Numbered from the stretch's first letter, positions 33,158 through 64,000 are shown. The stretch: DNA of 64,000 nucleotides from Patescibacteria group bacterium (GCA_048499955.1 JASNYX010000002.1:4513-68512); one strand, 5' to 3'. Numbers and translations are program-made. The notes: generated by a model from the sequence alone, not told the origin.

Positions 33158-33871
33158 TCAATATCCCTCTGCACCTTTTGCTTTTATAATTGCTAAAGGT
33201 GTCATTAATAATATCCATATATCAAATAAGATAGACTTTCGTCTGGCATATTCAACTTCCATGTCGATTCGTTTATCAAAATCTATTTCAGATCTACCAC
33301 TTACCTGCCAGTAACCGGTAATGCCCGGCTTTACGGTATAAATAATATTCAGCTTTTCTTTGTTTTCAGATGACTTTGTAATATACATCTCAAGCTCATC
33401 CGGCCTTAATGGTCTGGGGCCAATAACACTCATATCACCTCTTAATACATTGAACATCTGAGGGGTTTCATCGATTGAATATTTTCTAATAAAACGTCCA
33501 ATTTTTGTAACACGTGGATCATTTTTTATTTTGTTGTTTCCGCTTCTGATTTGTTTATATAACTCAGCATCCGTGAACAATATCTGATCAGCATTATGTA
33601 CCATAGATCTAAACTTATAAAACTCAAATGGGTGCATGCCTTTCCCAATACGCTTGTGAGAATAAATCGGTGAATGACGGTCTTCCAACCAAATCAGAAA
33701 AGAAGTAGCTATATATAGCGGCGAAAAAAGAATAAAAAACGCACAGGCAATCGCGATATCCATCATTCGCTTAACAAAGTAGTAAAATTGATTGTTTTCC
33801 GCTTTTGTTTCCATACTAATTAAGCATTCTCTTTGTAGATTTCTAAAGTTTCTTCTGCCATACGTCGCCAA
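33158..33871 (-). CDS. Polyprenyl-phosphate sugar-phosphate transferase (WbaP/WcaJ-type priming enzyme, PF02397)
   Basis: Conserved C-terminal catalytic domain motifs are present (VIGPRPLRPDE, KPGITGYWQVSGRSEIDFDKRIDMEVEY). There is an N-terminal TM. Confidence 0.88.
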   Translation of the reverse strand: MATYGRRNFRNLQRECLISMETKAENNQFYYFVKRMMDIAIACAFFILFSPLYIATSFLIWLEDRHSPIYSHKRIGKGMHPFEFYKFRSMVHNADQILFTDAELYKQIRSGNNKIKNDPRVTKIGRFIRKYSIDETPQMFNVLRGDMSVIGPRPLRPDELEMYITKSSENKEKLNIIYTVKPGITGYWQVSGRSEIDFDKRIDMEVEYARRKSILFDIWILLMTPLAIIKAKGAEGY

Positions 33872-34962
33872 GAATATCTTTTAACATTTTCGTATCCTTT
33901 TTCAGTCAGCTCTCTCCTTAATTCAAAATCCCGATGGATCTGAATCATTTTATCTGACAAATCTATGTTGCTCTTAGGGTTAAAATAATGAACACTTTGT
34001 CCGAAAACTTCTCGGTGAACAGGGATATCCGATACTAAACATGGCACACCAAATGATTGAGCTTCAAGTGGCGTAATACTAAATCCTTCCTGGAGTGAAG
34101 GGAATACATACGCCCATGCTCCTTTATACAAATATGCTAAATCTTTTTCCGAAACGTATCTTCCTTCACTAAATTTAGTTGCATAAATAAGGTTGCGATC
34201 TAAACCAAGTGCGTGTGAAAAACCGGCAACCCGCTCTGCATGGATATCTTTGCCTCCTGCTATTACCAATTGCGTATTTGATATGTCCGATTCTTTCATA
34301 AGCTCTTTATATGCGATTACAAGCATATTAAGATTCTTATGAGGAAATGCATTACCAACGTACAAGAAATATTTATTGATCACCCTCATTTCTTCTAATC
34401 GTGTTCTTAGAACCCCCATATCAGTAGGTGCGAGCTTAAGTAATCCATGATCAACACCTTCGTAAATAACCTTTGTCTTTGAACCTAACCCGGCCGAATA
34501 AGTTTTTTCAATATCATCAGAAACAGCATTACTTGGAACAATAATCTTTCGTGCTCTATGCATCGCAGTTTTTATAACAAACTCGTATCCATACTGCTTT
34601 ATCATAGAAGTTCCACCCTGGTGCTCCTGATACTTCCCCATTGTCAAATCGTGAACAGTAACCACAAATTTTTTGGGATATAAAACCGGTACATTAAAGT
34701 GGGGAACATGAAGTAAATCCAAACGTGCCTGATAAAACTCTTTTAACATATCAACCTGTTCACTAAACGTATACCAAGCTGAATCTACTATCCATTTTTT
34801 AAAATTCGGAACAGTAGGCCTATATTTATCATGATCGCGTTTACCGATAAAAATTATGTATTCATTAGTTGAGTCAATATTTTCCAACTCACGAATAAGA
34901 TTCCTAATATATCTTCCTATGCCGGAAGACGCGTATAGTCTGGCATCAATTCCTATTTTCAT
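33820..34962 (-). CDS. Glycosyltransferase family 4 (GT-B)
   Basis: C-terminal GT1/GT4 signature is present (…FPSLQEGFSITPLEAQSFGVPCLVSDIPVHREV…). Confidence 0.85.
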   Translation of the reverse strand: MKIGIDARLYASSGIGRYIRNLIRELENIDSTNEYIIFIGKRDHDKYRPTVPNFKKWIVDSAWYTFSEQVDMLKEFYQARLDLLHVPHFNVPVLYPKKFVVTVHDLTMGKYQEHQGGTSMIKQYGYEFVIKTAMHRARKIIVPSNAVSDDIEKTYSAGLGSKTKVIYEGVDHGLLKLAPTDMGVLRTRLEEMRVINKYFLYVGNAFPHKNLNMLVIAYKELMKESDISNTQLVIAGGKDIHAERVAGFSHALGLDRNLIYATKFSEGRYVSEKDLAYLYKGAWAYVFPSLQEGFSITPLEAQSFGVPCLVSDIPVHREVFGQSVHYFNPKSNIDLSDKMIQIHRDFELRRELTEKGYENVKRYSWRRMAEETLEIYKENA

Positions 34963-35075
34963 ATTGTCTGTAATTATAGCTTATCTTAGATTTAAGGATA
35001 TGAAATGCCCAAAAACCCCCTAAGATCTAACCTTAAGAATAAGCGAAAACTGATCATATCAATAAGCATGGTGCT

Positions 35076-35996
35076 CTATTCCCTCCCTGTTAAACGCCTT
35101 TTAAGCTTAAGTCCGGAAATCCCCCAATAAATAAACTGAGTTATAAACTTTGGATAAACCGGTTCATAGTATTTACGATAAAAGATCTTCATAGAGTTGA
35201 TACCGGCATCAATCTGCTTCTTCTTAGTTGTCCCTGATGCTTTGGAAATAGATGAGGACACTTTTTTTGTTCCTTTAGATGCACCCTTGTAGTGAATAAC
35301 TCTTGATTCAGGGTTATAGATAATCTTTCCTGAATTTAATACTTTTAATTGATAACACAGGTCTATATCTTCGCCATTAAGGAAATAATCTTCAGACCAC
35401 CAATTTATTTTTTTACCGGCATCTCTTCTAATAAGCATATATGCACCTATACATGCATCAATTTCATGAATAGTTCTTAAATCAAGGTGTAATAAATGAT
35501 ACCCACCTAATAATTTAGGGAAAATAGCACCGAAATATTTTTCTAGGCCAAGAAAATAGCAGAAACTTCTCCATGGCGTAGGAAACCCCCTGTGACAATC
35601 CCAATCAATTCCTCCCGACCATAAGTCAACTTTGCAAGTAGTTAAAGCAACATCCGAATGCAACTCCATGTATTCGTATGGAATAGTAATTGAGTTTTTC
35701 TCAAGAATAATGTCGGGGTTGAGAAACAGTACATATTTAGAGCTGGAATCTGACTCTTTAACACCAAGGTTGTTACCTTTCGCAAATCCGTTGTTCTCGT
35801 TTTTAACTAATCTGAACCACGGATCAACCGTCAACATATTCTCAAGGTCGCTACGAATACCATCCGTCGAATCGTTATCCACGACAATTACTTCCCAATT
35901 GAAATTCGCAGACGACAAACAAGTGCGAAGACTATCCAGCATTTTTAGCGTAACTTCTCGGGCATTATAGGTTAAAACTATTATAGATATGTCCAT
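35076..35996 (-). CDS. Glycosyltransferase family 2
   Basis: N-terminal ISIIVLTYNAREVT…VVDNDSTDG (the DxD-containing GT-A fold motif). Confidence 0.85.
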   Translation of the reverse strand: MDISIIVLTYNAREVTLKMLDSLRTCLSSANFNWEVIVVDNDSTDGIRSDLENMLTVDPWFRLVKNENNGFAKGNNLGVKESDSSSKYVLFLNPDIILEKNSITIPYEYMELHSDVALTTCKVDLWSGGIDWDCHRGFPTPWRSFCYFLGLEKYFGAIFPKLLGGYHLLHLDLRTIHEIDACIGAYMLIRRDAGKKINWWSEDYFLNGEDIDLCYQLKVLNSGKIIYNPESRVIHYKGASKGTKKVSSSISKASGTTKKKQIDAGINSMKIFYRKYYEPVYPKFITQFIYWGISGLKLKRRLTGRE

Positions 35997-36263: not shown

Positions 36264-37544
36264 ATGCAAGCATTACTTAAAAAAATCTGGATAGGAAACA
36301 GCTTCATTCTTAGCAAATCCTTTCTCGTCGTATTCGTATCACTAATGGCAAATGCTTTTGCCTATTTGTTTCAGCTACTGACAGGTAGATATTTTAGCTT
36401 GGAAGAATACGGCCAACTGAACGCCCTTTTTTCTCTCAGCGGGATCATACCACTAGCAGTTGGAATATTCATAAGTGCAACTCCTAAGGTCGTTGCCGAA
36501 ATAAAAGATCACGATTATCCCAACAGAATTTCTGCACTTTTTTTTACGTTACTCTACTTCGAAACCGGAATCTCGCTGGTCATAATAGGCGTGATGTTGC
36601 TTTTCTCGGGCTTCATTGGTGATTATCTAAACATTTCAAACATAGATCTAATCAGAATTTTTTCAGTAGCAGTTGCCGCGGGGATCTTTACAACATTTCT
36701 AAACCCGTTCTTACAAGGACTATTAAGGTTTAAAGCCTACTCCTTCTCACTATTTCTAACGGCAGCATTAAAATTGGCCGTAGCTGTCGTGGTTATATAC
36801 CTCCAATTGGATGTAGCAAGCATTTTTATAGGGCTAACTGTTACAACGCTAATCATGGGACTAATCGTAGTCTTAGCCTTAAGGAAAAATATCGTTAATA
36901 AGTTCGGAGAATTTGCAAAAGCTGATTTTAGAAAATTAATATACTATTCACTTGCAAGCTCACTAGGTCTAATCGGTCTGAACATGCTACAAAATATAGA
37001 TTTAATAGAAGTAAAACATTTTTTTGATGAAGCGACTGCCGGGATATACGCATCAACCTCGGTTATCGGAAAAATTGTTTTTTACGCAGCTTCACCTGTG
37101 GGAATAGTAATGTTACCTATCTGCTCTGAAAAATATATTAAAGGTGAAAATTTTATCAAGCCATTTGCAAGTGCACTGGCGATTGCTTTGTTTGTAAGCG
37201 GATGTATAACTGTAGGGTATATGCTCTTCCCTGAAGCAGTTATTAACATTCTCTTCGGATCAAGATACTTATCCGCGAGGGATCTTCTTCCACAGTATGC
37301 TTTTTTTACACTCACCTACACTATTTTATATATAGTAACCTTATTTTTAATCTCAATTTCTAAATTCAAAGCAAGCTCGCTCCCAATGATTTCTGTTCTC
37401 GTTCAGTATTTCGGAATTAAATTATTTGCGGACTCTCCTAGTACCGTGATTTATATATCCACAATATCCATTCTGATTGTTGTAATACCAATGTTATTTA
37501 TAGTTTATAACCTGTATAAGGCACACGGCGAAAATGAAAATTAA
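36264..37544 (+). CDS. Oligosaccharide flippase (Wzx-like, MOP superfamily)
   Basis: 426 aa with 12-14 TM helices and the typical N-terminal polysaccharide-biosynthesis-protein region. Its stop overlaps the following GT2 start. Confidence 0.75.
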   Translation: MQALLKKIWIGNSFILSKSFLVVFVSLMANAFAYLFQLLTGRYFSLEEYGQLNALFSLSGIIPLAVGIFISATPKVVAEIKDHDYPNRISALFFTLLYFETGISLVIIGVMLLFSGFIGDYLNISNIDLIRIFSVAVAAGIFTTFLNPFLQGLLRFKAYSFSLFLTAALKLAVAVVVIYLQLDVASIFIGLTVTTLIMGLIVVLALRKNIVNKFGEFAKADFRKLIYYSLASSLGLIGLNMLQNIDLIEVKHFFDEATAGIYASTSVIGKIVFYAASPVGIVMLPICSEKYIKGENFIKPFASALAIALFVSGCITVGYMLFPEAVINILFGSRYLSARDLLPQYAFFTLTYTILYIVTLFLISISKFKASSLPMISVLVQYFGIKLFADSPSTVIYISTISILIVVIPMLFIVYNLYKAHGENEN

Positions 37545-38304
37545 TTTACTTTCAGTAATCGTGCCAGTATATAAAAAAGAAAAAACAATAATCACGGAGA
37601 TAGAAAAAATTCACGATACCTTACAAACCACCCATTACCCATTTGAATTAATAATCGTCGTAGACGGAACTTCACTAGATAAATCTTACGAAAAAGCCAA
37701 AGAAGTAAAACTAAAAGGGGTCAAAGTTTACGGATACAAGACAAACAAAGGCAAAGGGCAAGCCGTGAGATACGGAATGTCAAAATCAATTGGCGACATA
37801 ATAATGTTCATAGATTCAGGAGGGGATATCGACCCGCAAGGTATAGTAATGCTTCTCGAACACTTAAGATGGTATAACGCCGACATAATAGTCGGTAGCA
37901 AAATGCATCCGGTCAGCAAAATCAATTACCCTTTAAAGCGAAAAATTTTCAGCCTTTTATATTTCTACATGATAAAGATGATGTTTGGATTAAAAATCCA
38001 TGATACCCAAACCGGACTGAAGGCATATAAGCGAAAAGTTTTAGATAAGGTATTAGAAAGATTAGTAGTCAAAAGATTTGCCTTCGACATCGAAATCTTG
38101 GCAGTTGCCAACAAGCTGGGCTTCAAAAAGATTTATGAAGCTCCCGTGGTTGTGAATTGGGATCCGAATGAAACTTCGATTGTGGGTTTATTTTCAAGCA
38201 ACGGAATTTTGGAATTTTATCGCAGATACTCTAGCTGTCTGGTATCGGATGAAAATTCTGAACTACTACAAAGGCAAGCGACACCGGGTGAAAATATTCG
38301 ATAA
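37534..38304 (+). CDS. Glycosyltransferase family 2 (dolichol/polyprenol-phosphate sugar synthase-like)
   Basis: LSVIVPVYKKEKTI…IVVDGTSLDKSY…FIDSGGDIDPQ, which is the DPM1/GtrB-like arrangement. It is 256 aa. Confidence 0.85.
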   Translation: MKINLLSVIVPVYKKEKTIITEIEKIHDTLQTTHYPFELIIVVDGTSLDKSYEKAKEVKLKGVKVYGYKTNKGKGQAVRYGMSKSIGDIIMFIDSGGDIDPQGIVMLLEHLRWYNADIIVGSKMHPVSKINYPLKRKIFSLLYFYMIKMMFGLKIHDTQTGLKAYKRKVLDKVLERLVVKRFAFDIEILAVANKLGFKKIYEAPVVVNWDPNETSIVGLFSSNGILEFYRRYSSCLVSDENSELLQRQATPGENIR

Positions 38305-38528
38305 GGAACTAGGACTATATGTAAACACAGGCGATATGACCGGCAAAAGCCAAGTCATAATAGAATTTGTCGATAGATGGTGGAAACGCATATTTCGAAC
38401 CGGCCACAAGTAAGCATAATCCAGCTCATGTATACCATCACTTCCCCACAAAACCTCCTATAGCGTATACTTGAAAGACACGCTTGACTGGCGTGATAGT
38501 ATTTATAGTATAAAACCTGCTCAAAAAT

Positions 38529-39158
38529 ATGGGCAAAAAACTAGAGTGGATAACTATCGTTATACCTCTTCAAAACACGTCAAATTATATTGACATAATA
38601 CTTCAGAAGCTCACCTATAAAGCTTATAGGCTCAAATATAAGTACGATATAAGTACCGAGTTTGTGTTTATTGATAATGGAAGTACTGATAATACCCTCG
38701 ATATAATTCAGCAAAACTTTAAGCATCCAAATGTTGTCTGCCACAGAGAGCCCGAGCCTCTTTCATATAATGATGCTGTTAGATCTGGAATAGAAAAATC
38801 TTCAGGGGAATTCATACTATGTATGAACACAAACCTTAACTCTCCATTAACCTTGATCGACGAATTTATAAAGAATATCAGGGACGTTAACACAGTTTTC
38901 ATATCGACCGGTATTTTTATGTTTCACAGAGTGATCGCGGATACCGTATTTACAAAAACAGGTGTCTTCAAATCAAGCTTTGAAAATGAGATTAAATATC
39001 TTTCAAATAAATATGAATTAATAATAAGATATATAGGATATAGCTCCGAGAACAACCTTAATTCTCTAAAGGAAACACTTATGTACTTAGTAAATTTATA
39101 TCACCGAAGAACAGATCAATTAAAAATTAAAGTAAACGATTTGTTAGGTTACTATTAG
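38529..39158 (+). CDS. Glycosyltransferase family 2-like (short)
   Basis: ITIVIPLQNTSNYI…FVFIDNGSTDNTLDII motif pattern. A promoter-like TTGACT-N16-TAGTAT lies just upstream, around 38485-38512. Confidence 0.55.
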   Translation: MGKKLEWITIVIPLQNTSNYIDIILQKLTYKAYRLKYKYDISTEFVFIDNGSTDNTLDIIQQNFKHPNVVCHREPEPLSYNDAVRSGIEKSSGEFILCMNTNLNSPLTLIDEFIKNIRDVNTVFISTGIFMFHRVIADTVFTKTGVFKSSFENEIKYLSNKYELIIRYIGYSSENNLNSLKETLMYLVNLYHRRTDQLKIKVNDLLGYY

Positions 39159-39163
39159 ATTCT

Positions 39164-40053
39164 ATGCACCCAATATATCCTACAGATGAAATAGAAGAGA
39201 ATCTCGCGATACCCTCCGAAAGCGTTTTTCCGGGTGAATTTTATGATCGATTGGGAGCACACCTCGACTCTGAACTAGTTAATGTACTTCGAAGAGATGG
39301 TCACAATATCGAAGAATTAAAAACGAAACCACCGGTATATATACTTATGCATGGTTATGGCGGGCCTATTGATAAAAACGGAACGCCAAATGTAGAATCC
39401 CGTTATTGTATTAAAGCTACCCTAGAACTCATCTAGTATTTCAAACGAGAAGCATCAAAGCGTGATCATGAATATTATCCGACGATTTTAGTGAGTGGAG
39501 GTACTGATTTCGGATATTATGCGTTTTATGCAGAGGAACTTATCAGGCAAATCCATATTCTCACAGGAGATCCTGATTACACTAATTTTGCAGACATTTG
39601 GGACCAAGGAACATATAAACGACAAAATCCGATTATGCACATGCTGTCGGAACAGGCGGAGAAGTGGAATTTGCGATGAACTTTCTCGCAGGTGAAAGCG
39701 ATCCGGATAAGCCGGTAATCTCGGTATGCAGACTCGGCCATCAAAGTAGAATTCAAAATTTCGCAAACGCACACGATTTCAAATTAACACCATTAACAAT
39801 CGAAGGAATTCTAATGCATTTTAGAACACAGGAAACTATCGATAGATTTATGCGAATCCACCCCGAACAGACTGATAGCATAAGAGGATTTTCAGCCGCC
39901 GAACGACGAAAAGCTACAATATCACGACTATTGGCAGATCCCTCTGAAGCAAAGACACTCGAATCACTCCTCAGAGTTCTACAGAAGCATCTCGGAGACA
40001 ATTTCAAAGATAAACTGTTCAGACTTATCGGACAAAACAAAGTAGAAAATTAA
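39164..40053 (+). pseudogene. DUF218 / YdcF-SanA-like family gene interrupted by an in-frame TAG (39434-39436) and a frameshift (about 39619-39679)
   Basis: Three ORF pieces concatenate into one YdcF-like protein: …VYILMHGYGGP…KATLELI*YFKREASKRDHEYYPTILVSGGTDFGYY… (the first two pieces are in the same frame, separated only by TAG), then frame-shifted …PVISVCRLGHQSRIQNFA…. The ISGG and V..DP.H..R motifs match the YdcF/DUF218 family. Confidence 0.45.
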
Positions 40054-40135
40054 CTAGAGTTAAACTCACTTTACTAGTCAATCTCATCATGCAATACTCG
40101 AGAAGTTATTAAAGGTCTTACTTTTTTAATCCATC

Positions 40136-41194
40136 ATGAAAAAAATTCTAATAACAGGATCTGCAGGACTAATCGGATCGCAAGCTGTGTCATTTTTTAT
40201 AGAACATGGCCATTCAGTTGTCGGCATCGACAACGATATGAGATCGTATTTTTTTGGGCAAGATGCCAGCACTTCATGGAACAAAGAAAAGCTGATACAC
40301 GATTTTAAAGACAAGTACGAGCATAAAGACGTAGATATCAGAAATAAGGAACAGATAGAGGAAATCATGAAAAACAACGAGTTTGACTTGATTATCCATA
40401 CAGCAGCTCAGCCTTCCCATGACTGGGCAGCAAAAGAACCGTTTACTGACTTTAGTGTCAATGCTGAAGGTACATTAGTCCTCCTTGAAAACTGTAGAAA
40501 ATACTGTCCCGAAGCAGTTTTCATATTCACCTCTACAAATAAAGTCTATGGAGATATGCCAAATAGCTTACCTTTAATTGAACAAGATACTAGGTATGAG
40601 ATTTCAAAAGAACACCATTTTCATGAACATGGAATAGATGAAACGATGAGTATTGATCAAAGCAAACACAGTGTTTTCGGTGCATCGAAAGTAGCCGCGG
40701 ATATTTTAGTTCAAGAATACGGACGATACTTTAACTTAAAAACAGCATGCTTTAGAGGCGGCTGTCTAACCGGACCCGCACACAGCGGAGCCGAACTACA
40801 CGGATTTCTTGCTTACCTTGCCAAATGTGTTGTAACAGGCAAAAAATACACGATTTTCGGATATAAAGGGAAACAAGTCCGAGACAACATACACTCATAC
40901 GATTTGGTTAATGCTTTTTACCATTTTTATAAAAATCCCAGATCAGGGGAAGTTTATAACATCGGCGGATCCAGACATTCCAATATCTCGATGAAGGAAG
41001 CAATCGCAAAGCTGGAAAAAATTACAGGCAAAAAAGCAAATATTGAATATACCGATCAAAATCGGGAAGGCGATCATATCTGGTATATATCAGATGTTAG
41101 GAAATTTCAAAATCATTACCCCGGATGGTCATATAAATACAGCATGGATCAGCTTCTAAACGAGATCGTAGAAAAAGGGCATTTTCAAAGTTAA
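40136..41194 (+). CDS. NAD-dependent sugar-nucleotide epimerase/dehydratase (extended SDR)
   Basis: Rossmann motif [10 protein letters not shown] and catalytic YxxxK (…[11 protein letters not shown]…). It is 352 aa. Confidence 0.85.
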
Positions 41195-44337: not shown

Positions 44338-44347
44338 TAAAACTCAT

Positions 44348-52642: not shown

Positions 52643-52910
52643 TTTTTGGGGTCTCCGGGGGATAAATTTGATTACCTTCTAAATCTTCGATAATTATAGC
52701 CGTTGTAGGGCACGATTTTGCACCTTCGATAATTTGAACGGCATCATCCCATGTTCCATCCTTAACAAACGCAATACCGTCATCATCAAGATCAAAAGTT
52801 TCAGGAGCTCTAATCACACAAATTCCCGCACTAATACAAAGATGGTTAATAACTTTAATTTTCACTTTTGAACCGGGTTGAGAAGCGAAAGAGTTTTGTC
52901 CGTTTTTATC
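52635..52910 (-). CDS. Small ferredoxin (single [4Fe-4S]/[3Fe-4S] cluster type)
   Basis: HLCISAGICVIRAPETFDLDDDGIAFV…AKSCPTTAI has the CxxGxC…CP arrangement of small clostridial/archaeal-type ferredoxins. The start is probably an internal Met (MDKNGQ at 52910) rather than the ORF-track start, which overlaps the upstream GT2. Confidence 0.65.
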   Translation of the reverse strand, partial: DKNGQNSFASQPGSKVKIKVINHLCISAGICVIRAPETFDLDDDGIAFVKDGTWDDAVQIIEGAKSCPTTAIIIEDLEGNQIYPPETPKNA

Positions 52911-52950
52911 CATAGTATCCCGAGTGTAACAAATAGGTTGAAAGTCTGCA

Positions 52951-55459: not shown

Positions 55460-57729
55460 TCCAATCTCTCGAAAATTGTTAATCTATACTCTCCCTGAGT
55501 TATCTCATCAAAACGCATATCCTCTGTTACTTCGGTAGGATGAGTCACATTTGTTTCAATAGACGTCAGTACAAGTAACTTTGTATTCTCATCATAGATT
55601 TTCGTGTCATGAAACCGGGAATCATATATAACAATTTGATCTCTAACAAAATAAAATTTACCGAAATCGTCATCTTCTAATCGATCAGTATAATATGCGA
55701 TTAGTGGTGACCACTCGGGATTTTCAATATAAATAACGGCATTATTTGTCATACTCCTGTTTGCTGCAAGCTCAATCAAAAAACTAAGATCCGAATCATA
55801 TCCCTGGCCGTAGAAATCATTGGCGCGCACAACACCCAACACGGAAACAGCAACGATCATGATCGCCAGTAATCCTTTATTAACACAATCACAGATAATA
55901 ATATTGCGATACTTTCGGATTACCGAATATAGCATATGAAGAGCGATAAACATCAAGAAGATATAGAAACTTGACGGCGAAGTGCTACCTAACGGATGGT
56001 AAATATTTCCGATCGCAAGAGCTAAAACCCCATATAAATATGCACTTAAAATTCCAAAACCGATTCTTCGGAAAAGCCCGATAGCAATAAGTAAACCGGA
56101 GAAATAAAACAGAACAGACAAGGCTCTACCCGTAAAAGAATAATTCCCAAGAACATATCTGAAAACATTCAGAAAATAACGATAAAAATCAGTAACACTA
56201 TTCGATGATTCGGGAAGATAAAACTGCCCAATCTCATAGGCATTTAACGGGAAAATGAAATATACCAACGGAGCCAAAATTGAAACCAGACCCAGAACGC
56301 CTAAAAGTAAAACCTTCCGGTTATTAACAATAAATTCTCTAATTCTCAACTCCCCTTTAATGCGTAGTGACGCATATGCACATGCAAAAACCACATAAAA
56401 CCAAAAGAACTCTGATTTATACGAGTAAAACAATCCACCAACCAAAAATGAAATGATCCCCGCCATTAAACCCAAAGCCATATAGTCAGACCTCGATTTA
56501 TAAACCTGAAATAGCATTACCAGCAAAATTATCCAAAATAATAGAAATACCAGAAACGAAAAAAGCCCTGTCTCAACCCACGTCTCCAACCATAGGTTAT
56601 GAAGTGGTAATTTGAGGTTTAGAGCAGCTCTGTCAATGTAATAGTAAGCATCCGCCCACTTAGAAGTTCTAAAATACTCGCTAAAAGAGTTAACCCCGAT
56701 TCCGTACAAGAAATTTTCGAAACCTATTATTATCCCTACTTTTAACAAAAACAAATGTGAATAAAACGAAACTGCCCTATACAAAAAGGCAGAACGCATG
56801 GACTCCATAAACTGGCTTATAAATAGCAATGGAACCCCGGCAGCTATTAGCCCACTCGTTAAATAAAAACCTGCACTCGAAATAGATTTCCTCAAATTCC
56901 TGCTTCCCACAAAAATCAGATATGTGAATAATGTGCCACCAACTAGAAATCCTAAAAACGCACTTCTAGAACCGGTTAATTTCAAGGCGAATAACAAAAA
57001 AACCGATAGCACCAGAAGCCAAATGATTTGAGGCTTACTCAAGTGGTTCGATTTTTCTTCAACAGAATCAGAGTTGAAAAACCTAAATCCCCGAATAGCC
57101 ATAACTTTGCTTAATATCCAAGCACGTGCCTCGCTCAGCTGTGCATCTCCGTGTAAAAACAGGGTCTTGAGTATAAATCCCATAAGGAGGAAAAATATAG
57201 CTGAAACAAAAGCTCCGAAATGGTTTACATCCCAAAACGTAGCACCGTATCTGGTTGGGTACCCGGGTACCGGCCACACGCCTCCGCTTGCAATACCTAA
57301 GTTTTCCTGTAAATAAATTTGCCTAATCATAAAACCCGCCATGAAAGTAATCGCCAATGCATACATTAGAACAATATTTTTCACTCCGGACTTTGACTTC
57401 TTTAAAAAATCCTTCAGCAATACATATAAAAACAAGACGGAAGCCTGGAATAAAATGAACTTGGTTGAATCAGGAATCGAATTCGAAGCGAACAAACTTA
57501 GTATCTGAAAGCCCACAAGGAGTGAAAGGAGAATAAAAAAGATGTCCTTAGAATAGCTTTTCAAGTTTCGCACGAAAACGTAAAAACCTCCGAAAGCACA
57601 CACCGCTAGTAGAATTTTAGAATACACTAAATCGGGATCAAAAATTGAGTATGCTTCCTTGTGCGTGAAAGGAATCAAAAGCACAAGAGCAAATATAAGT
57701 ACCGATTTAAGATTTAGTGTTTTAATCAT
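55456..57729 (-). CDS. Large membrane protein with O-antigen ligase/polymerase (Wzy_C)-like motifs
   Basis: It has …LTGSRSAFLGFLVGG… and …GYPTRYGATFWDVNHFGAF… motifs, shared with the adjacent paralog. The probable start is ATG at 57729, overlapping the upstream stop (ATGA). Confidence 0.65.
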   Translation of the reverse strand: MIKTLNLKSVLIFALVLLIPFTHKEAYSIFDPDLVYSKILLAVCAFGGFYVFVRNLKSYSKDIFFILLSLLVGFQILSLFASNSIPDSTKFILFQASVLFLYVLLKDFLKKSKSGVKNIVLMYALAITFMAGFMIRQIYLQENLGIASGGVWPVPGYPTRYGATFWDVNHFGAFVSAIFFLLMGFILKTLFLHGDAQLSEARAWILSKVMAIRGFRFFNSDSVEEKSNHLSKPQIIWLLVLSVFLLFALKLTGSRSAFLGFLVGGTLFTYLIFVGSRNLRKSISSAGFYLTSGLIAAGVPLLFISQFMESMRSAFLYRAVSFYSHLFLLKVGIIIGFENFLYGIGVNSFSEYFRTSKWADAYYYIDRAALNLKLPLHNLWLETWVETGLFSFLVFLLFWIILLVMLFQVYKSRSDYMALGLMAGIISFLVGGLFYSYKSEFFWFYVVFACAYASLRIKGELRIREFIVNNRKVLLLGVLGLVSILAPLVYFIFPLNAYEIGQFYLPESSNSVTDFYRYFLNVFRYVLGNYSFTGRALSVLFYFSGLLIAIGLFRRIGFGILSAYLYGVLALAIGNIYHPLGSTSPSSFYIFLMFIALHMLYSVIRKYRNIIICDCVNKGLLAIMIVAVSVLGVVRANDFYGQGYDSDLSFLIELAANRSMTNNAVIYIENPEWSPLIAYYTDRLEDDDFGKFYFVRDQIVIYDSRFHDTKIYDENTKLLVLTSIETNVTHPTEVTEDMRFDEITQGEYRLTIFERLD

Positions 57730-60700
57730 TGTTGTTGTATTAGCATCAATGCGGTTGGGTCTTCCGGTGGATTCCCCCATTCTACTAGCTGATTTGAAAT
57801 AACTATGATCCTGTTTCTCAAACTTGCAAAGCGGCTCTGTTGATATGCCAACCGACGTGCTGGTGGTATTAACTCCAACTTTTTGTATTCAGCCAGTCTT
57901 GTGCCAAGCTCAATTTTGTAGATTTCAACACGCGATCTTGATTTAAATAATACCCAGTCCCCTGCTGAACCTTTAACGTCTAATGATAATGGGAAATCGA
58001 CTTTTGCTTCTTCGCCTTTAACAGAATAATAAATTTTATTTGGAGTTAAGAATGACAGTGCTTCATCAGGCTCGGCATCCTCAATTTTCTTTACTATATC
58101 CGGACCTGAAATCGACGATACGCGATGATCACTATAAAATAGTACAACAGCATGGCCGGCAGTGTTGTAATAAAGCTTCTTATCGGGATGATCTTCAACC
58201 GGATAGATATCATTATGAATCTCGATTAAGGCGGCTTTATCTCGATTGGCATCAGGATAATAAATCTTATCAACATTCCAAGCTAAAGTGAAAACTGATA
58301 ATACGAATATACCAATCAGTGCTACAAACCTAACAACCTTATGGTCAAGTGAAAACTCATTTTTGATAATGTTATTGGCCCAATAAAGAAATCTCTCCGA
58401 AAATCTTCCTGCAATTAAAGCTAGAAACGGATACATAGGCATTATGTACCATTGTAGTTTGTCTCTTGAATATGTGAAAAAACTGAATAAATAGACAATG
58501 ACTAACATTAAAAGCAAATACTCTTTTCTTCGATTTTTATCAATAAATGGAAGGCATACAATACCCGCAAGCAATGGGGCGAGCCATAATCTAAATGAAG
58601 TTTTTATCACAGTTAAATACCATAGAGGCGGCTGTATGTGGCCTAAACCATCTACACCACGCTTTAATACGTGTTCAAAAAAGTAATCATCCAAAAAATC
58701 ACTACCGTGCCTTATATACTGTAATATATGCCAAGGTCCCGCAATAAGTGTCGCTCCAATAATCATCACGAGCCCTAATCCGATACTTTTATAATTTTTA
58801 TTGACAACTGATAAGTAAAGAAGATATGCGATATAGGTTGGTAGTAATAACAATCCGATAATCCCCTTAGTCAAAATCCCAAAGCCTATGCTTAGTCCGA
58901 CCATGAAAGAGTAGTAGATTGAACGCCTCTTTGATATCGATATGTAGTTTTGTATAAGACGGTAGAAAAAATAAAACGATAGAAGTATAAAAAAAGTCAC
59001 AGAAACATCGAGCATACCGTTTCGGGAGTAGTAAACATACTGAATCGTCGACAGAAGCAATAAAGCTGAGAATATACCCGCAAGACGGTTATACATTTTC
59101 GCTCCGGTTCTATAAACTAGGATAACCCCACCAACCCCGGCGACAGCTGACCAAAACCTGGCAGCAAACTCGGCAAAATCACGATATCCTACAAGCTTAA
59201 ACATCAGTGCAGTCAGCCACATATAAAGCGGTGGTTTTTCAAACCAATATTTTGAAAGATTATCCCATCTTAGGGAAAGCCACTCCCCTGTCATTACCAT
59301 ATTTTTTGCTACTTTTGCATAAATAGCTTCATCTACGTCGATTAAAGCCGATGATCCAAGTTTAATGAAAGTGAAAAATACTGCAGGAGGAACAATAATA
59401 AGATACGGAGTTAAAGTTGATTTGCTCCACCATGAAAAGATATCAAGCAACTTTATATGGAAACTATTTGAAACATACACATATCCAATTCCAAGGAAAA
59501 TTGATATCCAAAAGAACTCCATATTGTACGAATAGAATATTCCGGCGGTTAAAACCGAAATTACACTTCCCAGAACTCCAATGCCCAAATACTTCATTTT
59601 ACGTTCATCTGCATTAAATACTGAGTAAATAAGCGAACTCAAAAGCAGCACAATAAATGAGGCGTAAAGCGTAACCCCAACAGCACCACTTTCTGCTAAA
59701 ACTTCTCCCCAAACGCTATGAGACGGAACTCTGGATTCTCTTAGTTTTGGCTCCCGATCAAAGTAGTCAGAAGCGGTTTCGGTTTGCCTGAAAGCATAAT
59801 CGAAAGTTCCATATCCGGAACCGATGAAGAAATTATTGTGAAAGATTTCCGCAGATGCATCAAGTAGCATAAAATGGGTATCGGTAGAATCAAGCCTATA
59901 ATGCATATATCGCGAAATTTTCGACTTAATATCCACACCTTGCACCACTGAGTAGATCAGAATCCCCAAGGATCCAAGCAAAAGTCCGGCCACGGCGAAC
60001 ATTAGCGGTTTCTTGAGTTTAGTCCAATAATATACTGCAAGACTAATTAACATTCCGACAGCGATTCCAATCCAGGCACTTCTTGATTGAGTCATGAAAA
60101 GTAACCAAGAAAGAAATCCCAGAAAACCAACATACATAAACTTTCGCTTGAGGCTTTCTGAAATAAAAATATAGCTAAAAGCTAAGGGGATTAATGTGAT
60201 CAGATATCCTCCATAGTGATTTACGTCCCAAAAGGTGGAACCTAAACGTGGAAGCACATTCGGTACAACCCATACTCCACCTATAGTTTCCCTACAGCAC
60301 ATCCTAAGATAGAACTGTATGACCGCAAATATCCCGGCAAGCAAGCCGATAAACAGATAAACATTGAGAATCGTAAAATAATTTTCTTTATTTTCCTTTA
60401 TAACGACCTTAAAAAGCAGATAGTAGTAAACGGCCAATGAATAAAACGCAAAAAGTGCAGCACTCTGAGAAAACACCTCTGAATTTACTAGAGATACACC
60501 CCTAGTTACTAAAAGCATGGCCAAAAGTACAAAGAACGGGTCTTTTATAAATTGGTCTTTTACTTTATTCCATATGACATGTTTTGGGGTCTTAATCATC
60601 CAAACAACAACGGAAGTAATCGCGTAAACTAATGTTCCAAGTAAGAAAATTCGTATCGGGAGTAAATCCCAAATTACTAAGCTAAAAAGCTCTTTGTGCA

Positions 60701-60824
60701 TCAAGGGAACAAATAAAAGGCTTGCTAAAAAGGCTCGTAAAAAACTTTTATGTGAAAGATAAACGGAAGCAGCAAGAAGTATGCCAATAGCAATAAAAGC
60801 TGTGTTGTCAGGAAATAAAATCAT
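57726..60824 (-). CDS. 1032-aa fusion membrane protein: N-terminal Wzy_C (O-antigen ligase/PglL-like) domain plus C-terminal PMT/ArnT-like GT-C glycosyltransferase domain
   Basis: N-terminal half: …LPRLGSTFWDVNHYGGY… and …MTQSRSAWIGIAVG… (Wzy_C-type). C-terminal half: DEAIYAKVAKNMVMTGEWLSL…FEKPPLYMWL… matches the DE-motif loop of the PMT_2/GT39/GT83 families. Confidence 0.7.
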   Translation of the reverse strand: MILFPDNTAFIAIGILLAASVYLSHKSFLRAFLASLLFVPLMHKELFSLVIWDLLPIRIFLLGTLVYAITSVVVWMIKTPKHVIWNKVKDQFIKDPFFVLLAMLLVTRGVSLVNSEVFSQSAALFAFYSLAVYYYLLFKVVIKENKENYFTILNVYLFIGLLAGIFAVIQFYLRMCCRETIGGVWVVPNVLPRLGSTFWDVNHYGGYLITLIPLAFSYIFISESLKRKFMYVGFLGFLSWLLFMTQSRSAWIGIAVGMLISLAVYYWTKLKKPLMFAVAGLLLGSLGILIYSVVQGVDIKSKISRYMHYRLDSTDTHFMLLDASAEIFHNNFFIGSGYGTFDYAFRQTETASDYFDREPKLRESRVPSHSVWGEVLAESGAVGVTLYASFIVLLLSSLIYSVFNADERKMKYLGIGVLGSVISVLTAGIFYSYNMEFFWISIFLGIGYVYVSNSFHIKLLDIFSWWSKSTLTPYLIIVPPAVFFTFIKLGSSALIDVDEAIYAKVAKNMVMTGEWLSLRWDNLSKYWFEKPPLYMWLTALMFKLVGYRDFAEFAARFWSAVAGVGGVILVYRTGAKMYNRLAGIFSALLLLSTIQYVYYSRNGMLDVSVTFFILLSFYFFYRLIQNYISISKRRSIYYSFMVGLSIGFGILTKGIIGLLLLPTYIAYLLYLSVVNKNYKSIGLGLVMIIGATLIAGPWHILQYIRHGSDFLDDYFFEHVLKRGVDGLGHIQPPLWYLTVIKTSFRLWLAPLLAGIVCLPFIDKNRRKEYLLLMLVIVYLFSFFTYSRDKLQWYIMPMYPFLALIAGRFSERFLYWANNIIKNEFSLDHKVVRFVALIGIFVLSVFTLAWNVDKIYYPDANRDKAALIEIHNDIYPVEDHPDKKLYYNTAGHAVVLFYSDHRVSSISGPDIVKKIEDAEPDEALSFLTPNKIYYSVKGEEAKVDFPLSLDVKGSAGDWVLFKSRSRVEIYKIELGTRLAEYKKLELIPPARRLAYQQSRFASLRNRIIVISNQLVEWGNPPEDPTALMLIQQQ

Positions 60825-62005
60825 TATTTAATAGTAAGGAGCCTGCGATAGACCTCGATTGTTTGGGAAGCAGTCTGTTCCCATCCATATTTCGAAGCAA
60901 TTTCGGCTTTATATTCACTGCTCAAAGGCTTACTTTCAGACGCATTAATTATAGCACGCTGAAGCTCTTCGACGTCCCAAGGCGAACAATAATATGCGTT
61001 ATTTCCTAGGTATTCTTTAATTCTATCTCCCGAGGCAACAACACGCATTCCGGCAACTGCGGCCTCCAGAGCCACCAAACCGGTGGTTTCAAACCAACTC
61101 GGGTGAACATAGATCCCTTGATGCGACATAGCGGAAGCAACAATATTTTGGGATCGTTGTCCAAGATAGTAGATATTAGGTGAAAATCGATCTTTTATTT
61201 TGAACCTATACTTATATTCAGGGCTTCTTTTGGTCATGTCTCCAATGAACACAAGCTTATAATTTTCCAATTCATTTCGTTTTTTTAGAGATTCGAAAGC
61301 TTTAATGAGATTTAGTTGGTTCTTTCTGGGCTCAACTCTTCCGACATTTAATATTATTGGGGTATCCGTGAAATCCTCTCCGAATTCATCCATCATGAGT
61401 TTTAGAAATTCTTTATTGTCCGATCTGCTAAAAATTTCCAAATCAACCCCATTCACTATTTTTGCCCACGGAAATTCCGGGACATTAAAATCCAGTTTAA
61501 TATCCTCTGCTTCTTTGTCGGTTTGGACAAGAACGATATCCGACATCTTAATAATTTCTCTCTGCTGATATCTGATACCCGCCAATATTTGCACCAGTGA
61601 AGGAAAAGCCTTCCCATAGTTAGTTGCGGATCTATAAATATTCTTCCACTCATCTCGTAAAGGTTGAGACGATACCGCCCAGTTATACAACCTTCTAATA
61701 TCAAAACGATAAAGATCTTCATACTCTCGTACTTCCTGAGCTGAATGATGAATTGCAGATAAAACTATCGGCTTGTTATGCTGCCTCGCCCATACAGCTT
61801 GTAAGTAAGTTTCACAGACCCAATCTAAATTAAAAAGATGAACTAAATCATAATTATCGATATCTGTAATCTTGATTTCAGGTCTAATATCAATTTTTAT
61901 TGATGGATCGATCTTCTCGATAGCTGATTTGGTATGTTCCATTTGAGAAGTATCTCCGCCTTTTGGATCATATAAATCAATTCGAGATTGGAATAAAATC
62001 TTCAT
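60824..62005 (-). CDS. Glycosyltransferase family 4
   Basis: …HPSWFETTGLVALEAAVAGMRVVASGD… (the E-x7-E GT4 motif region). Confidence 0.85.
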   Translation of the reverse strand: MKILFQSRIDLYDPKGGDTSQMEHTKSAIEKIDPSIKIDIRPEIKITDIDNYDLVHLFNLDWVCETYLQAVWARQHNKPIVLSAIHHSAQEVREYEDLYRFDIRRLYNWAVSSQPLRDEWKNIYRSATNYGKAFPSLVQILAGIRYQQREIIKMSDIVLVQTDKEAEDIKLDFNVPEFPWAKIVNGVDLEIFSRSDNKEFLKLMMDEFGEDFTDTPIILNVGRVEPRKNQLNLIKAFESLKKRNELENYKLVFIGDMTKRSPEYKYRFKIKDRFSPNIYYLGQRSQNIVASAMSHQGIYVHPSWFETTGLVALEAAVAGMRVVASGDRIKEYLGNNAYYCSPWDVEELQRAIINASESKPLSSEYKAEIASKYGWEQTASQTIEVYRRLLTIK

Positions 62006-62011
62006 AGTAAT

Positions 62012-63136
62012 TTAACTTAAATATAAACGTCGATAACCATCCCAAAAGTTTTCTAACGAATACTGAGAAGCTTGGAGAACCCCTTTACCTAGCAAAACTT
62101 GCCTGGTATTTTCATCCGACAGCAACTGTTTGAGTGTGTTTTTCAGTTCGGTGATATCCCTAACCTTAAAGTATACTGCAGCATCCCCACCCACTTCTTT
62201 CAGAACCGGAATATCTGATGCTATTACAACTCTCCCGTTCGCAAGTCCCTCTATCAAAGCAATGCCGAAACCTTCTGCATTCGTAGGGAGAACATAGTAG
62301 TCGAAAACAGATAAAATGCCTGTTTTCTGTTCTTGCGGAAACCTATCCGTAAATGCGACTCGATCAGAAATACCCAACTCGTTTACAAAATTTTTACATT
62401 TATCAAGTAATTTTCCGCCCCCTGCTAAGAAAAGAAACAACTCATTTTTGTCATCATTTATTAACCCGGCAAAAGCTCGAATTAAAATTTCATGACCTTT
62501 TTCTTCTGTAAATCTCGAAATATTACCGATGATAGTCTTGTCCTGAGGAATTCCATATATGCGTCGAATTTCAGATGCCATATTAGCATCATATTTTAAG
62601 CTTTCTAGATCTATACCATTCGGAATAACCGTGATTTTTGACTCATTAATCTTCTCGCTATTAATACGTTGCCTTTTCAATTCCTTTGTCAAAGCAATCA
62701 CTCTTGTAGCTAAAAAATTGCCCGCTATATAGTTGGCAATAAAATTCGGAACAATTGAAATATATTTCTTAAGACCGGAATGATTCCACTCTAGAAATGA
62801 CGTATGTACATGGTAAATTCTTTTTTCACAACTTGCCCACCAGGCACCAATCATAGCCAGACAGCCGGTGCGCAATTCGTGTGCGTGAATCACATCAATA
62901 TTTAAGTTCTTAATTGTTTTATAAATACCATACGAATAGGAGATATCGAATTCCGATTTGGGAAACAACTCAATATGTTTTATCGCACCATAATCAAGAT
63001 ACTCCCTTACCATCGGACCATTCGGACAGGCCACGTAAATTTCTATCTCTTCATGAAGTCCTCTAATGATATCTGAAATCTGTTGTTCTATACCGCCAAA
63101 TTCAGCGGAGTGGTAACACATCAATAATTTTTTCAT
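62012..63136 (-). CDS. Glycosyltransferase family 4
   Basis: …LPTNAEGFGIALIEGLANGRVVIASDIPVLKEVGGD… (the GT4 C-terminal domain). Confidence 0.85.
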   Translation of the reverse strand: MKKLLMCYHSAEFGGIEQQISDIIRGLHEEIEIYVACPNGPMVREYLDYGAIKHIELFPKSEFDISYSYGIYKTIKNLNIDVIHAHELRTGCLAMIGAWWASCEKRIYHVHTSFLEWNHSGLKKYISIVPNFIANYIAGNFLATRVIALTKELKRQRINSEKINESKITVIPNGIDLESLKYDANMASEIRRIYGIPQDKTIIGNISRFTEEKGHEILIRAFAGLINDDKNELFLFLAGGGKLLDKCKNFVNELGISDRVAFTDRFPQEQKTGILSVFDYYVLPTNAEGFGIALIEGLANGRVVIASDIPVLKEVGGDAAVYFKVRDITELKNTLKQLLSDENTRQVLLGKGVLQASQYSLENFWDGYRRLYLS

Positions 63137-64000
63137 TGTTCTTTCACATTTTCGAAACTTTTATTAATTAACATTAATTGTTTGTTAACTTTTCCGTCCC
63201 AACTATTTTGCGAAGCCAACTTTTTACGTGCATTTATTTTTTCTTCAGAGTTTTCCTGCAATGCCCTTTCGATATTAAAAACAAAACCGGCATCATCCTT
63301 TGAAACATATCCATCAACATCAAATCCTTCATAAGCAGGAAGGTTCGTAACTATAGTAGGTAAACCCGCAGCTAAAGCTTCAAAATATTTCACAGGGAAA
63401 CAACCTTTCACAGTATAATCATTCAAATTATAGGGTATAAAAAAAGCATCAAAATGAGCGAAATAATAGGGCATCGTTGACCAGGGTCTTAGCCCTAAAA
63501 AGTGCACGTTACTCAATTGTTTAAGTGCACTCAAATCAAGATCAGGATCTGAAACTTTCTCAGGTCCGATCAAAATGAAATGATACCTGCGATAAGTTTT
63601 TGCAACCTTCTCGATTAACTTTATATTATTCTTATAGCTATCAATTGCACCGGAAAATCCAACTCTGGGATGTGGAATATCTGAAATATCTTTCGGTTCA
63701 GATAATTTCTCGACAGGCAAATCAAAAACTTCTACTGCAGCAGCATTCGGCAAGAAATGCACATCAGGTCTCCACTGTTTAAACTTCGTCACTAAACCGG
63801 GTGCACTGGCAAATACTAGATTGGCTTTTTCAGCCAACCATTTTTCCCGGTGTAAAACCCAATCCACACCCTGCAGTCCTTTTTGATTGAAAATTATCTT
63901 TAGTTCATCATCAATCCATTGCACCCAAGATATTAATGAAGGGGTAACTTTCTTCCGTTGGGAATATTCGGGAAACGCAGTGTATTCATCTACAACGTCA
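63133..64000 (-). CDS. Glycosyltransferase (GT-B, GT4-like), partial; N-terminus lies beyond the right edge of the window
   Basis: The frame is open from the window edge. The ORF-track start at 63924 is a GTG, and upstream in-frame sequence (…YEDVVDEYTAFPEYSQRKKVTPSLISW…) has no stop. The C-terminal region FFIPYNLNDYTVKGCFPVKYFEALAAGLP is GT-B-like. Confidence 0.6.
   Translation of the reverse strand, partial: DVVDEYTAFPEYSQRKKVTPSLISWVQWIDDELKIIFNQKGLQGVDWVLHREKWLAEKANLVFASAPGLVTKFKQWRPDVHFLPNAAAVEVFDLPVEKLSEPKDISDIPHPRVGFSGAIDSYKNNIKLIEKVAKTYRRYHFILIGPEKVSDPDLDLSALKQLSNVHFLGLRPWSTMPYYFAHFDAFFIPYNLNDYTVKGCFPVKYFEALAAGLPTIVTNLPAYEGFDVDGYVSKDDAGFVFNIERALQENSEEKINARKKLASQNSWDGKVNKQLMLINKSFENVKEQ

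Follow-up and report, generated by a model that had tools for sequence, protein, structure and literature searches.

We analysed a 64,000-nucleotide (nt) stretch of DNA from a Patescibacteria group bacterium (GCA_048499955.1, JASNYX010000002.1:4513-68512), hereafter called the window, in which, from position 30872 to the window edge, all sizeable open reading frames (ORFs) were assigned to glycan synthesis, apart from a few fragments. We consider it probable that here lies the core locus by which a bacterium of candidate division WWE3 assembles its cell-surface glycan, a locus that was vertically inherited and enlarged in this lineage and in which a Wzx/Wzy_C system would assemble an undecaprenyl-linked glycan that is then elaborated outside the membrane by glycosyltransferases (GTs) of the GT-C class. 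The centrepiece is a gene for a protein of 1032 amino acids (aa) that joins a Wzy_C domain to an ArnT/PMT-like GT-C domain (57726-60824, minus strand). The annotation was based on Pfam, NCBIfam and PDB sequence and profile searches of the window ORFs and on the prediction of transmembrane helices.

The fusion is arranged as a Wzy_C region at residues of about 25-455, an ArnT/PMT-like GT-C region at about 465-845, and a C-terminal domain lying outside the membrane, with the Pfam matches themselves spanning about 236-387 for Wzy_C and 501-698 for PMT and PMT_2. Wzy_C was matched with 59.4 bits, above the PF04932 cutoff of 31.7, PMT_2 (PF13231) with 71.6 bits against a cutoff of 26.1, and PMT (PF02366) with 49.6 bits. 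The similarity to the ArnT structure 5ezm was found with E=4.6e-23 for the single protein and E=1.9e-46 for the profile of its family; the protein is nevertheless not an orthologue of ArnT, for which the NCBIfam equivalog model gave 110 bits against a cutoff of 567. Public records call it only a "glycosyltransferase family 39 protein". The initial annotation had listed two Wzy_C proteins and one PMT/ArnT-like domain among five large membrane proteins, and all of these are present, except that the ArnT-like domain turned out to be part of one of the two Wzy_C proteins.

Fifty-eight clusters with the same two-domain architecture make up the fusion family, and their named sources are candidate division WWE3 or Patescibacteria. 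Conservation does not differ between the halves, the mean identity being 41% in the Wzy_C half and 42.5% in the ArnT-like half, with 42 and 34 invariant columns, respectively. WaaL activity needs conserved Arg and His residues in the outside loops, to which the invariant Arg and His residues of the Wzy_C half may or may not correspond. The invariant positions of the Wzy_C half include FWDVNH, R193, S247, R248, the motif SRS, H308/R310/D312, GxGxGxF, and H369, and those of the ArnT-like half, among 36 family members, include D498, E499, EKPP at 529-532, and Y598/Y599/R601. The loop motifs of both domains were predicted to lie outside the membrane. Given that the first ArnT-like transmembrane helix (469-487) follows the last Wzy_C helix, the loop carrying the acidic DE pair would face outward, and the two parts would thus be topologically compatible.

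The second Wzy_C protein, of 774 aa (55456-57780, minus strand; 39.1 bits, also above the cutoff), is related to the fusion through its N-terminal 450 residues, which are paralogous to the Wzy_C part of that protein (28% identity, E=9e-32; hhalign probability 100%, E=3e-62). Its C-terminal part, which consists of five transmembrane helices and a soluble tail, aligns only faintly with the region of the fusion just past EKPP (probability 21%, 53 columns), which is too little to establish it as a decayed copy of the fusion. This protein was found in 10 of the 58 loci described below, all from the sub-lineage to which the window belongs.

A scan of species-representative genomes recovered 76 loci, including those of the complete genomes CP006914 (RAAC2_WWE3_1) and RIFOXYC1_FULL_40_10. 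We called ORFs in all of them and matched these to the window proteins, taking the 58 loci with a full-length fusion as the base for neighbour counts, which are minima because many loci end at contig ends. These 58 related loci (55 non-redundant, mostly from WWE3) share a gene order that runs from an AftD-like and a DUF6311-like GT-C, when present, through a further GT-C, three GT4 enzymes, the fusion, Wzx, and a set of variable genes to the priming transferase, DUF4012, recO, an aminoacyl-tRNA synthetase (aaRS) gene, and the division and cell wall (dcw) cluster. The GT4 gene directly upstream of the fusion (60824-62005 in the window, minus strand) was found in 49 of the 51 loci with enough flanking sequence, and the second and third members of the trio (62012-63136 and 63133-64000, both minus strand) in 51 and 44 of the 58. 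The GT-C of 455 aa was present in 36/58 loci, the DUF6311-like GT-C in 20/58, the AftD-like GT-C in 8/58, the priming transferase in 34/58, and DUF4012, beside the priming transferase, in 30/58. Clustering of the ORFs that matched no window protein placed Wzx after the fusion in 36 loci, and past DUF4012, recO follows in 26 loci and a class II aaRS in 22, and mraW also occurs there, as is the case in the window. Between the fusion and the priming enzyme, the relatives carry rml genes and varying GTs, and typical WWE3 loci have a single Wzy_C domain. The sub-lineage of the window has gained the 774-aa paralogue, and its variable middle has grown and is inverted in part.

The host of the window is thus probably a member of candidate division WWE3 (Katanobacteria, within the candidate phyla radiation (CPR)/Patescibacteria), an assignment that rests on these relatives. 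Some contigs with the fusion or its ArnT-like half bear titles such as Woesearchaeota, Gammaproteobacteria, or Muribaculaceae (JAWABG010000068.1 and the loci that we numbered L044 and L079), and many are called "uncultured Candidatus Saccharibacteria"; owing to their WWE3-type synteny, such titles look like errors of binning or automatic naming.

The locus had been described as an island that begins at the priming transferase, and neither part of this description was retained in full. A horizontally acquired island can be ruled out, as the GC content is 0.34-0.38 within the locus and 0.35-0.40 outside it (0.34-0.40 over the window, a low-GC stretch of normal chromosome), with no step at the locus edge, and the cassette is syntenic across WWE3 together with its neighbours recO, class II aaRS, and mraW. 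Uniform composition and conserved flanks argue instead for a vertically inherited cassette with a fixed position and a variable middle, which nearly all sampled WWE3 appear to have kept at the same chromosomal spot and of which the window would hold an enlarged copy. The priming transferase does belong to the locus, but the start should be moved to the DUF4012 gene at 30872, which is its neighbour in at least 27 related loci. At the other end, the locus does continue beyond the window, as had been proposed: the last GT4 gene runs off the edge, being readable by tblastn in one frame to base 63999, and in a 4.7-kb contig from the same sample it is whole (426 aa) and adjoined, beyond the window, by a gene for a 527-aa PMT_2 protein.

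The three other large membrane proteins also appear to belong to the GT-C class. Homology to GT-C enzymes or a GT-C fold, and not a transporter fold, was found in four of the five large proteins, so that, in agreement with the initial annotation, the five are best described as GT-C-class or Wzy_C proteins rather than as transporters, and they are not all plain Wzy polymerases. The largest, of 1331 aa (44348-48343, plus strand), matched nothing in Pfam (even at E≤10), NCBIfam, or the PDB when used alone, and it has two full-length relatives besides its own entry. Nonetheless, a profile made of this protein and its distant relatives matched the AftD structures 6w98 and 6wbx with E=6e-8, in an alignment that begins at AftD residue 51 (the essential residues of AftD are K39, D41, E251, K361, and D474), and three of eight relatives matched GT-C_AftD (PF11847), the best with E=4.4e-7. 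Its predicted topology consists of about 10 N-terminal transmembrane helices, some 750 aa outside the membrane, and five C-terminal helices. We therefore regard it as a putative, distant AftD-like GT-C.

The adjacent gene (48336-50015, plus strand, with 48336 as its probable start) encodes a protein of 571 aa whose family partly matches DUF6311 (PF19830). Its AlphaFold2 model reached a predicted local distance difference test (pLDDT) score of 90.4, and the best Foldseek matches of this model are all GT-C enzymes, namely STT3, AglB, DPY19, AftA, ArnT, and PglB (E=1e-6 to 8e-3), with matches to major facilitator superfamily (MFS) and G protein-coupled receptor (GPCR) folds at a probability of about 0.1 or less. 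An oligosaccharyltransferase of the STT3/PglB/AglB type was considered and rejected, as the likeness is one of fold only (TM-score of about 0.5) and the WWDYG motif is missing; the pattern W[WY]D[YWFN]G was found in no protein of the locus and in none of the 38 members of the 571-aa family. The families of the 571-aa and 1331-aa proteins are homologous to each other by hhalign (probability 97.9%, E=6e-13, 422 columns), which suggests that the adjacent genes are old, distant paralogues. The third protein, of 455 aa (54092-55459, plus strand), is a putative PMT_2-related GT-C that resembles LA_3751/LA_3752 (NCBIfam NF047440, E=3.7e-16, below the cutoff). It belongs to a very large, uncharacterised family (4582 representatives at 50% clustering and E≤0.001) that has no Pfam model of its own, and 13 of 40 relatives matched PMT_2. 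The profiles of the 571-aa and 455-aa families had no match in the PDB.

Polyprenyl-phosphate sugars are the donors of GT-C enzymes, and they are made by such enzymes as dolichyl-phosphate mannose synthase (DPMS), ArnC, AglJ, PpgS, and PgfS. A candidate for this role in the window is the GT2 enzyme encoded at 37534-38304 (plus strand), overlapping the end of wzx, which we infer to be a DPMS/GtrB/ArnC-like donor synthase for the GT-C enzymes from its best PDB matches, the Dol-P-Man synthase of Pyrococcus furiosus (5mlz, E=1.6e-12) and ArnC, and from its best NCBIfam matches, AglJ, PpgS, PgfS, and ArnC. A four-gene module made of a DPMS-like GT2, a membrane GT2, a ferredoxin, and an HpnJ-like B12-binding radical S-adenosylmethionine (SAM) enzyme recurs in one related locus, L061, upstream of the GT4 trio; the radical SAM enzyme is there 74% identical, and its module neighbours 35-57%. 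The use of B12 in a CPR organism with a reduced genome is notable.

Beyond the observed domain identities, fold class, conservation, and synteny, we infer the substrates, the order of the steps, and the acceptor. On the cytoplasmic face, the small phosphoglycosyl transferase would prime undecaprenyl phosphate, and the GT4 and GT2 enzymes would lengthen the oligosaccharide, which may contain an SDR-modified sugar (from a short-chain dehydrogenase/reductase) and be methylated by the FkbM-family enzyme. Wzx would then flip the lipid-linked oligosaccharide. On the outer face, the Wzy_C domain of the fusion could either polymerise the unit linked to undecaprenyl diphosphate (Und-PP) or move it en bloc to an acceptor glycan, a role that the 774-aa paralogue may share in this sub-lineage. 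The fused ArnT-like domain and the stand-alone GT-Cs (the proteins of 1331, 571, and 455 aa and the PMT_2 protein past the window) would add sugars from polyprenyl-monophosphate donors, made by the DPMS/GtrB-like GT2. A single polypeptide, the fusion, would thereby link polymerisation or ligation with a GT-C reaction. The most likely product is a secondary cell-wall or surface heteropolysaccharide with conserved and strain-variable parts. The earlier proposal of a lipid-linked oligosaccharide assembly plus en bloc transfer is borne out in part, in that lipid-linked assembly with later steps outside the membrane, en bloc transfer perhaps among them, describes this scheme fairly, and the enzyme mix is, as had also been proposed, more elaborate than that of a textbook capsule or O-antigen locus. 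A bolder version holds that the fusion is a dedicated machine with two active sites, confined to WWE3 and its close relatives in the CPR, which ligates or polymerises the flipped Und-PP-glycan and glycosylates the same product from a polyprenyl-phosphate sugar, and which, together with AftD-type enzymes, builds a lipopolysaccharide (LPS)-like or lipoarabinomannan (LAM)-like lipoglycan, or a glycan-on-glycan wall polymer, that defines the envelope of these ultra-small monoderms; this version we regard as doubtful.

Several observations weigh against a surface-glycan locus of the kind that we favour. When the Wzy_C part of the fusion was compared with the PDB by sequence and by profile, neither WaaL nor Wzy nor PglL was matched, and as no solved structure resembles it in sequence, it cannot be distinguished whether it would act as a polymerase, a ligase, or an O-oligosaccharyltransferase. 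Among the five large proteins, the 455-aa protein has the weakest assignment to GT-C, which relies on sub-threshold matches; the comparison of its family with stand-alone PMT_2 profiles was not significant (probability 1.7%), and its single-sequence AlphaFold2 model was unusable (pLDDT 41). The NCBIfam matches of the candidate donor synthase are all below their cutoffs, no transmembrane anchor was predicted for it, and the scanned ORFs of the window did not include a flippase of the GtrA family. The Pfam scans of the window found no match to Wzz or GNVR that would indicate a Wzz-type co-polymerase, in line with the earlier statement that Wzz and Wzc are lacking (neither was found in any window ORF of at least 100 aa), and a search for LCP (LytR-CpsA-Psr) ligases in the window and in the Pfam tables for five relatives (L002-L006) was likewise negative. 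Several genes of the variable middle, moreover, look broken. The same window ORFs and Pfam tables contain no Tag/Tar-type genes either, so that a known LCP/teichoic-acid wall polymer locus, which had been named as an alternative, was not what we found.

The strength of the preferred reading also depends on how other readings fare. One of them is that the locus makes a lipoglycan similar to LPS or to lipomannan (LM)/LAM, in which the GT4 trio builds a glycolipid anchor as PimA/PimB or BgsA/BgsB do, the GT-Cs extend it outside the membrane with polyprenyl-phosphate sugars, and Wzy_C acts as a WaaL-like ligase of a variable Und-PP-glycan onto a conserved core. The arrangement of a conserved core (GT4 trio, fusion, and GT-Cs) and a variable middle bounded by the priming transferase resembles the logic of LPS core and O-antigen, and AftD-like and PMT_2-like enzymes combined with a DPMS-like GT2 parallel LM/LAM synthesis. 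Furthermore, typical WWE3 loci have only one Wzy_C domain, and conservation of the Wzy_C half amounts to about 41% among lineages with differing GT sets, which suits a ligase better than a serotype-specific polymerase; in our opinion, this conservation leans slightly towards a ligase, or else a polymerase of a conserved backbone. The GT4 enzymes do match synthases of glycolipid anchors (IagA/BgsA, Mgs, and Dgs), but these matches are weak and generic and fall far below the cutoffs. As no enzyme specific to a lipid anchor was identified and no lipoglycan is known from CPR bacteria, we consider this explanation unlikely.

The glycosylation of proteins, in particular of the type IV pilin encoded in the same window, had been put forward as a possible function, and it seems to us decidedly improbable. 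O-oligosaccharyltransferases belong to the Wzy_C family, and a Wzy_C domain of the PglL/TfpO type could in principle move an Und-PP-glycan en bloc to Ser/Thr residues of pilin, S-layer, or other surface proteins; alternatively, PMT_2-type GT-Cs could glycosylate proteins stepwise, like PMT or the Pgf system of Streptococcus mutans. PMT/PMT_2 homology is indeed present, PgfS and AglJ are among the best matches of the DPMS-like GT2, the window pilin contains 20.5% Ser+Thr as compared with 12.1% in the other proteins examined, and a glycosylated S-layer is among the possibilities raised for WWE3 (PMC3812714). However, the comparison with PglL/PilO/TfpO found no match to PglL_A or Wzy_C_2 (E≤0.01) in either Wzy_C protein, and in the window, the pilin gene is separated by about 27 kb from DUF4012, where the locus starts, and by about 51 kb from the closest gene with Wzy_C. 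A pilin-linked TfpO system was rejected, since genes for pilin or PilB were found within 10 kb in none of the 58 loci whose fusion is full-length. In addition, the cassette has no conserved candidate for a substrate protein, and the number of GT-Cs and the long outside region of the AftD-like protein suit polysaccharide acceptors better. We find it very hard to believe, finally, that this is an ordinary locus of the capsule or O-antigen type whose large proteins are plain Wzy polymerases or unrelated transporters and whose fusion is an artefact of annotation or assembly. The priming transferase, Wzx, Wzy_C, and numerous GTs do constitute the standard Wzx/Wzy parts list, and the frameshifted appearance of several window ORFs calls for some caution about the assembly, but 58 independent loci, drawn from many assemblies and complete genomes among them, have an uninterrupted fusion ORF, and the GT-C homology or fold of four of the five large proteins, together with the probability of about 0.1 or less for MFS and GPCR folds in the fold search, speaks against such a reading. 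On balance, we retain a core surface-glycan locus with Wzx/Wzy_C assembly and GT-C elaboration as the preferred explanation.

By domain searches, we found all of the smaller components that had been proposed, namely one Bac_transf priming enzyme, an SDR enzyme, an FkbM methyltransferase, and a B12 radical SAM enzyme with a ferredoxin. In order, the locus opens with the DUF4012 protein of 684 aa (30872-32926, minus strand; Pfam DUF4012, E=3e-9), for which one N-terminal transmembrane helix and a large outside domain were predicted. It is followed on the same strand by the small priming phosphoglycosyl transferase of 237 aa (33158-33871; Bac_transf, E=8.4e-60; NCBIfam EPS_sugtrans, 256 bits), which resembles the C-terminal domain of WbaP/WcaJ, by a GT4 enzyme (33820-34962; Glycos_transf_1, E=2e-25, and Glyco_transf_4), and by a GT2 enzyme (35076-35996; Glycos_transf_2, E=4.8e-17). 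On the plus strand lie the Wzx-type flippase with about 10 predicted transmembrane helices (36264-37544; Polysacc_synt_3 and Polysacc_synt), the DPMS-like GT2 discussed above, the N-terminal half of a truncated GT2 (38529-39158; Glycos_transf_2 profile positions 1-87 of 168), an SDR nucleotide-sugar epimerase/dehydratase (40136-41194; Epimerase, E=9e-43) whose RmlB-like and GalE-like matches are below the cutoffs, a GT4 enzyme (41227-42396; Glycos_transf_1, E=9e-20), the FkbM-family methyltransferase (42348-43145; Methyltransf_21, E=4e-20; TIGR01444, 47 bits against a cutoff of 37.7), and a GT2 enzyme with a predicted C-terminal transmembrane helix (43321-44337; Glycos_transf_2, E=1e-24). Past the AftD-like and DUF6311-type genes, the minus strand carries the HpnJ-like B12-binding radical SAM enzyme (50012-51766; Radical_SAM and B12-binding; TIGR03471 HpnJ, 159 bits against a cutoff of 578), a 4Fe-4S ferredoxin (52635-53024; Fer4_13, Fer4_15, and Fer4_19) that is likely the electron donor of the radical SAM enzyme, and a membrane-anchored GT2 of 403 aa with two transmembrane helices (52951-54162; Glyco_trans_2_3 and Glycos_transf_2). 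The GT4 trio at the window edge was assigned by Glycos_transf_1 for the first two members (E=1e-21 and E=2e-29) and by a TuaH-like match for the one cut by the window edge (E=9e-24).

The locus thus comprises five GT4 and five GT2 enzymes (one of them truncated), one Wzx, and five large polytopic proteins, so that the count of GT2/GT4 enzymes is 10 and not the 11 or more of the initial annotation. Many genes had been described as translationally coupled, but short overlaps between genes on the same strand were found at five junctions only (of 1, 4, 8, 8, and 11 nt). The absence of nucleotide-sugar synthases was borne out, as neither a nucleotidyltransferase nor an rml gene lies inside the window.

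Some stretches of the window resemble frameshifted genes. Three short ORF pieces at 39164-40053 (plus strand), possibly a broken gene, have no Pfam match, no detectable family, and no match in related loci, and a DUF4015-like gene for a putative glycosyl hydrolase (51794-52642, minus strand; weak match, E=0.008) is apparently in pieces. A similar case outside the locus is ftsA (17433-18701, minus strand), which consists of two ORFs in the same frame separated by a gap of about 114 nt with three in-frame stops. Through this gap, FtsA-like sequence can be read on in a different frame, so that the frame must change twice within a short distance, and the split could reflect either an assembly error or a true disruption of this division gene. 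Blastx of 38300-40140, 51760-52660, and 17400-18720 against the ORFs of related loci gave no match.

The left half of the window encodes PilC, PilB, and an N_methyl pilin (907-4249), a two-component pair, a Wzx-like protein, LepB, L21, isoleucyl-tRNA synthetase, and a full dcw block (mraZ, mraW, a penicillin-binding protein, ftsW, murG, ftsA, and ftsZ), as well as an IS200-type transposase, the class II aaRS, and recO. The transposase gene, of the Y1 type (28151-28807, plus strand), is flanked by mraZ and the class II aaRS, and the relatives, in which mraW is close to the aaRS, do not have it. Both Wzx genes that had been reported, the one in the locus and the second at 6570-7805, were found. 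The latter is far from the main locus and is adjoined by a gene for a small protein of secreted type (5783-6547), which contains the Ig-like domains Big_6 and Glucodextran_B and is encoded beside tRNA-Thr (5684-5759).

The envelopes of CPR/Patescibacteria are almost uncharacterised, and their surface structures are thought to mediate attachment to hosts. Kantor et al. described an unusual abundance of GTs and of dTDP-rhamnose genes in WWE3 and suggested polysaccharides, glycoproteins, or a glycosylated S-layer (PMC3812714), and Meheust et al. found that DUF4012 is a CPR-enriched envelope family tied to loci for capsular polysaccharides and exopolysaccharides (PMC6744442). Our literature searches found no description of a Wzy_C-ArnT fusion, of the cassette, of DUF6311, or of AftD-like proteins in CPR. 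For the main surface glycan of WWE3, the locus offers a concrete candidate that is found throughout the lineage, with the fusion as a testable centrepiece enzyme that has invariant residues in both halves, and the range of GT-Cs of the AftD/DUF6311 type would be extended well past Actinobacteria. A fusion of a Wzy/WaaL-type with an ArnT-type enzyme could reveal the way in which the glycosylation of side chains is tied to polymerisation or ligation, and glycoengineering may profit from it. No known principle of glycan assembly is overturned by these observations; none of the component families is new, and the scheme as a whole recombines pathways that have been described before.

Comparison with these pathways helps to place the locus. 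The C-terminal half of the fusion matches ArnT (GT83; PMT enzymes form GT39) over about 330 residues, with the acidic DE of the first loop and EKPP invariant, but the WWE3 group has no lipid A and the domain is fused to Wzy_C. The mycobacterial arabinofuranosyltransferase AftD has an N-terminal GT-C transmembrane bundle, a long outside region, and a C-terminal transmembrane bundle, with a mean length of 1381 aa, and its homologues have been reported solely from Actinobacteria (bioRxiv 10.1101/2019.12.22.885152). The 1331-aa protein would belong to the same size class and topology, to judge from its prediction and the family profile, although the protein itself lies under every Pfam threshold, and no genes of the decaprenyl-phospho-arabinose pathway were seen within the window, to which that search was confined. 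With the three-component Gtr-type systems (GtrA/GtrB/Gtr*, CsdA/CsdB/CflA, and Citrobacter ORF12-15; PMC11127046), the locus shares a candidate DPMS/GtrB-like GT2 and GT-Cs acting outside the membrane; it differs in that the window has no GtrA match, the GT2 lacks the C-terminal transmembrane helices of GtrB, and there are five or more GT-Cs instead of one.

The resemblance to Gram-negative Wzx/Wzy loci with WaaL is broader, as it includes the priming transferase, the cytoplasmic GT2 and GT4 enzymes, Wzx, the Wzy_C proteins, and conserved ends around a variable middle. In contrast to these systems, the WWE3 locus has no Wzz or Wzc, its Wzy_C domain is fused to an ArnT-like GT-C, and the partner of the priming enzyme is DUF4012, with one predicted transmembrane helix as opposed to the two of a Wzz-type co-polymerase; WWE3 also lacks lpxC and kdsA and has no lipid A-core pathway (PMC3812714). 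The nearest described logic, likened here by the description of the pathway, is that of a monoderm, Lactococcus lactis, in whose rhamnan-polysaccharide pellicle pathway the lipid-linked unit is flipped by WpsG, a protein of the Wzx type, polymerised by WpsI, and transferred en bloc onto rhamnan by the GT-C WpsJ, and separate pairs of a GT2 and a GT-C add side-chain sugars (PMC9574508). The WWE3 window differs from it in having no rhamnan ABC transporter or LCP gene and in priming with a Bac_transf enzyme, which gives a diphosphate linkage, and not with WpsA/B, which give a phosphate linkage. In both comparisons, the two steps that are fused in WWE3 are carried out by separate proteins elsewhere, by Wzy or WaaL and a Gtr-type GT-C in Gram-negatives and by WpsI and WpsJ in Lactococcus, while the WWE3 fusion would bring both polytopic activities together in one polypeptide.

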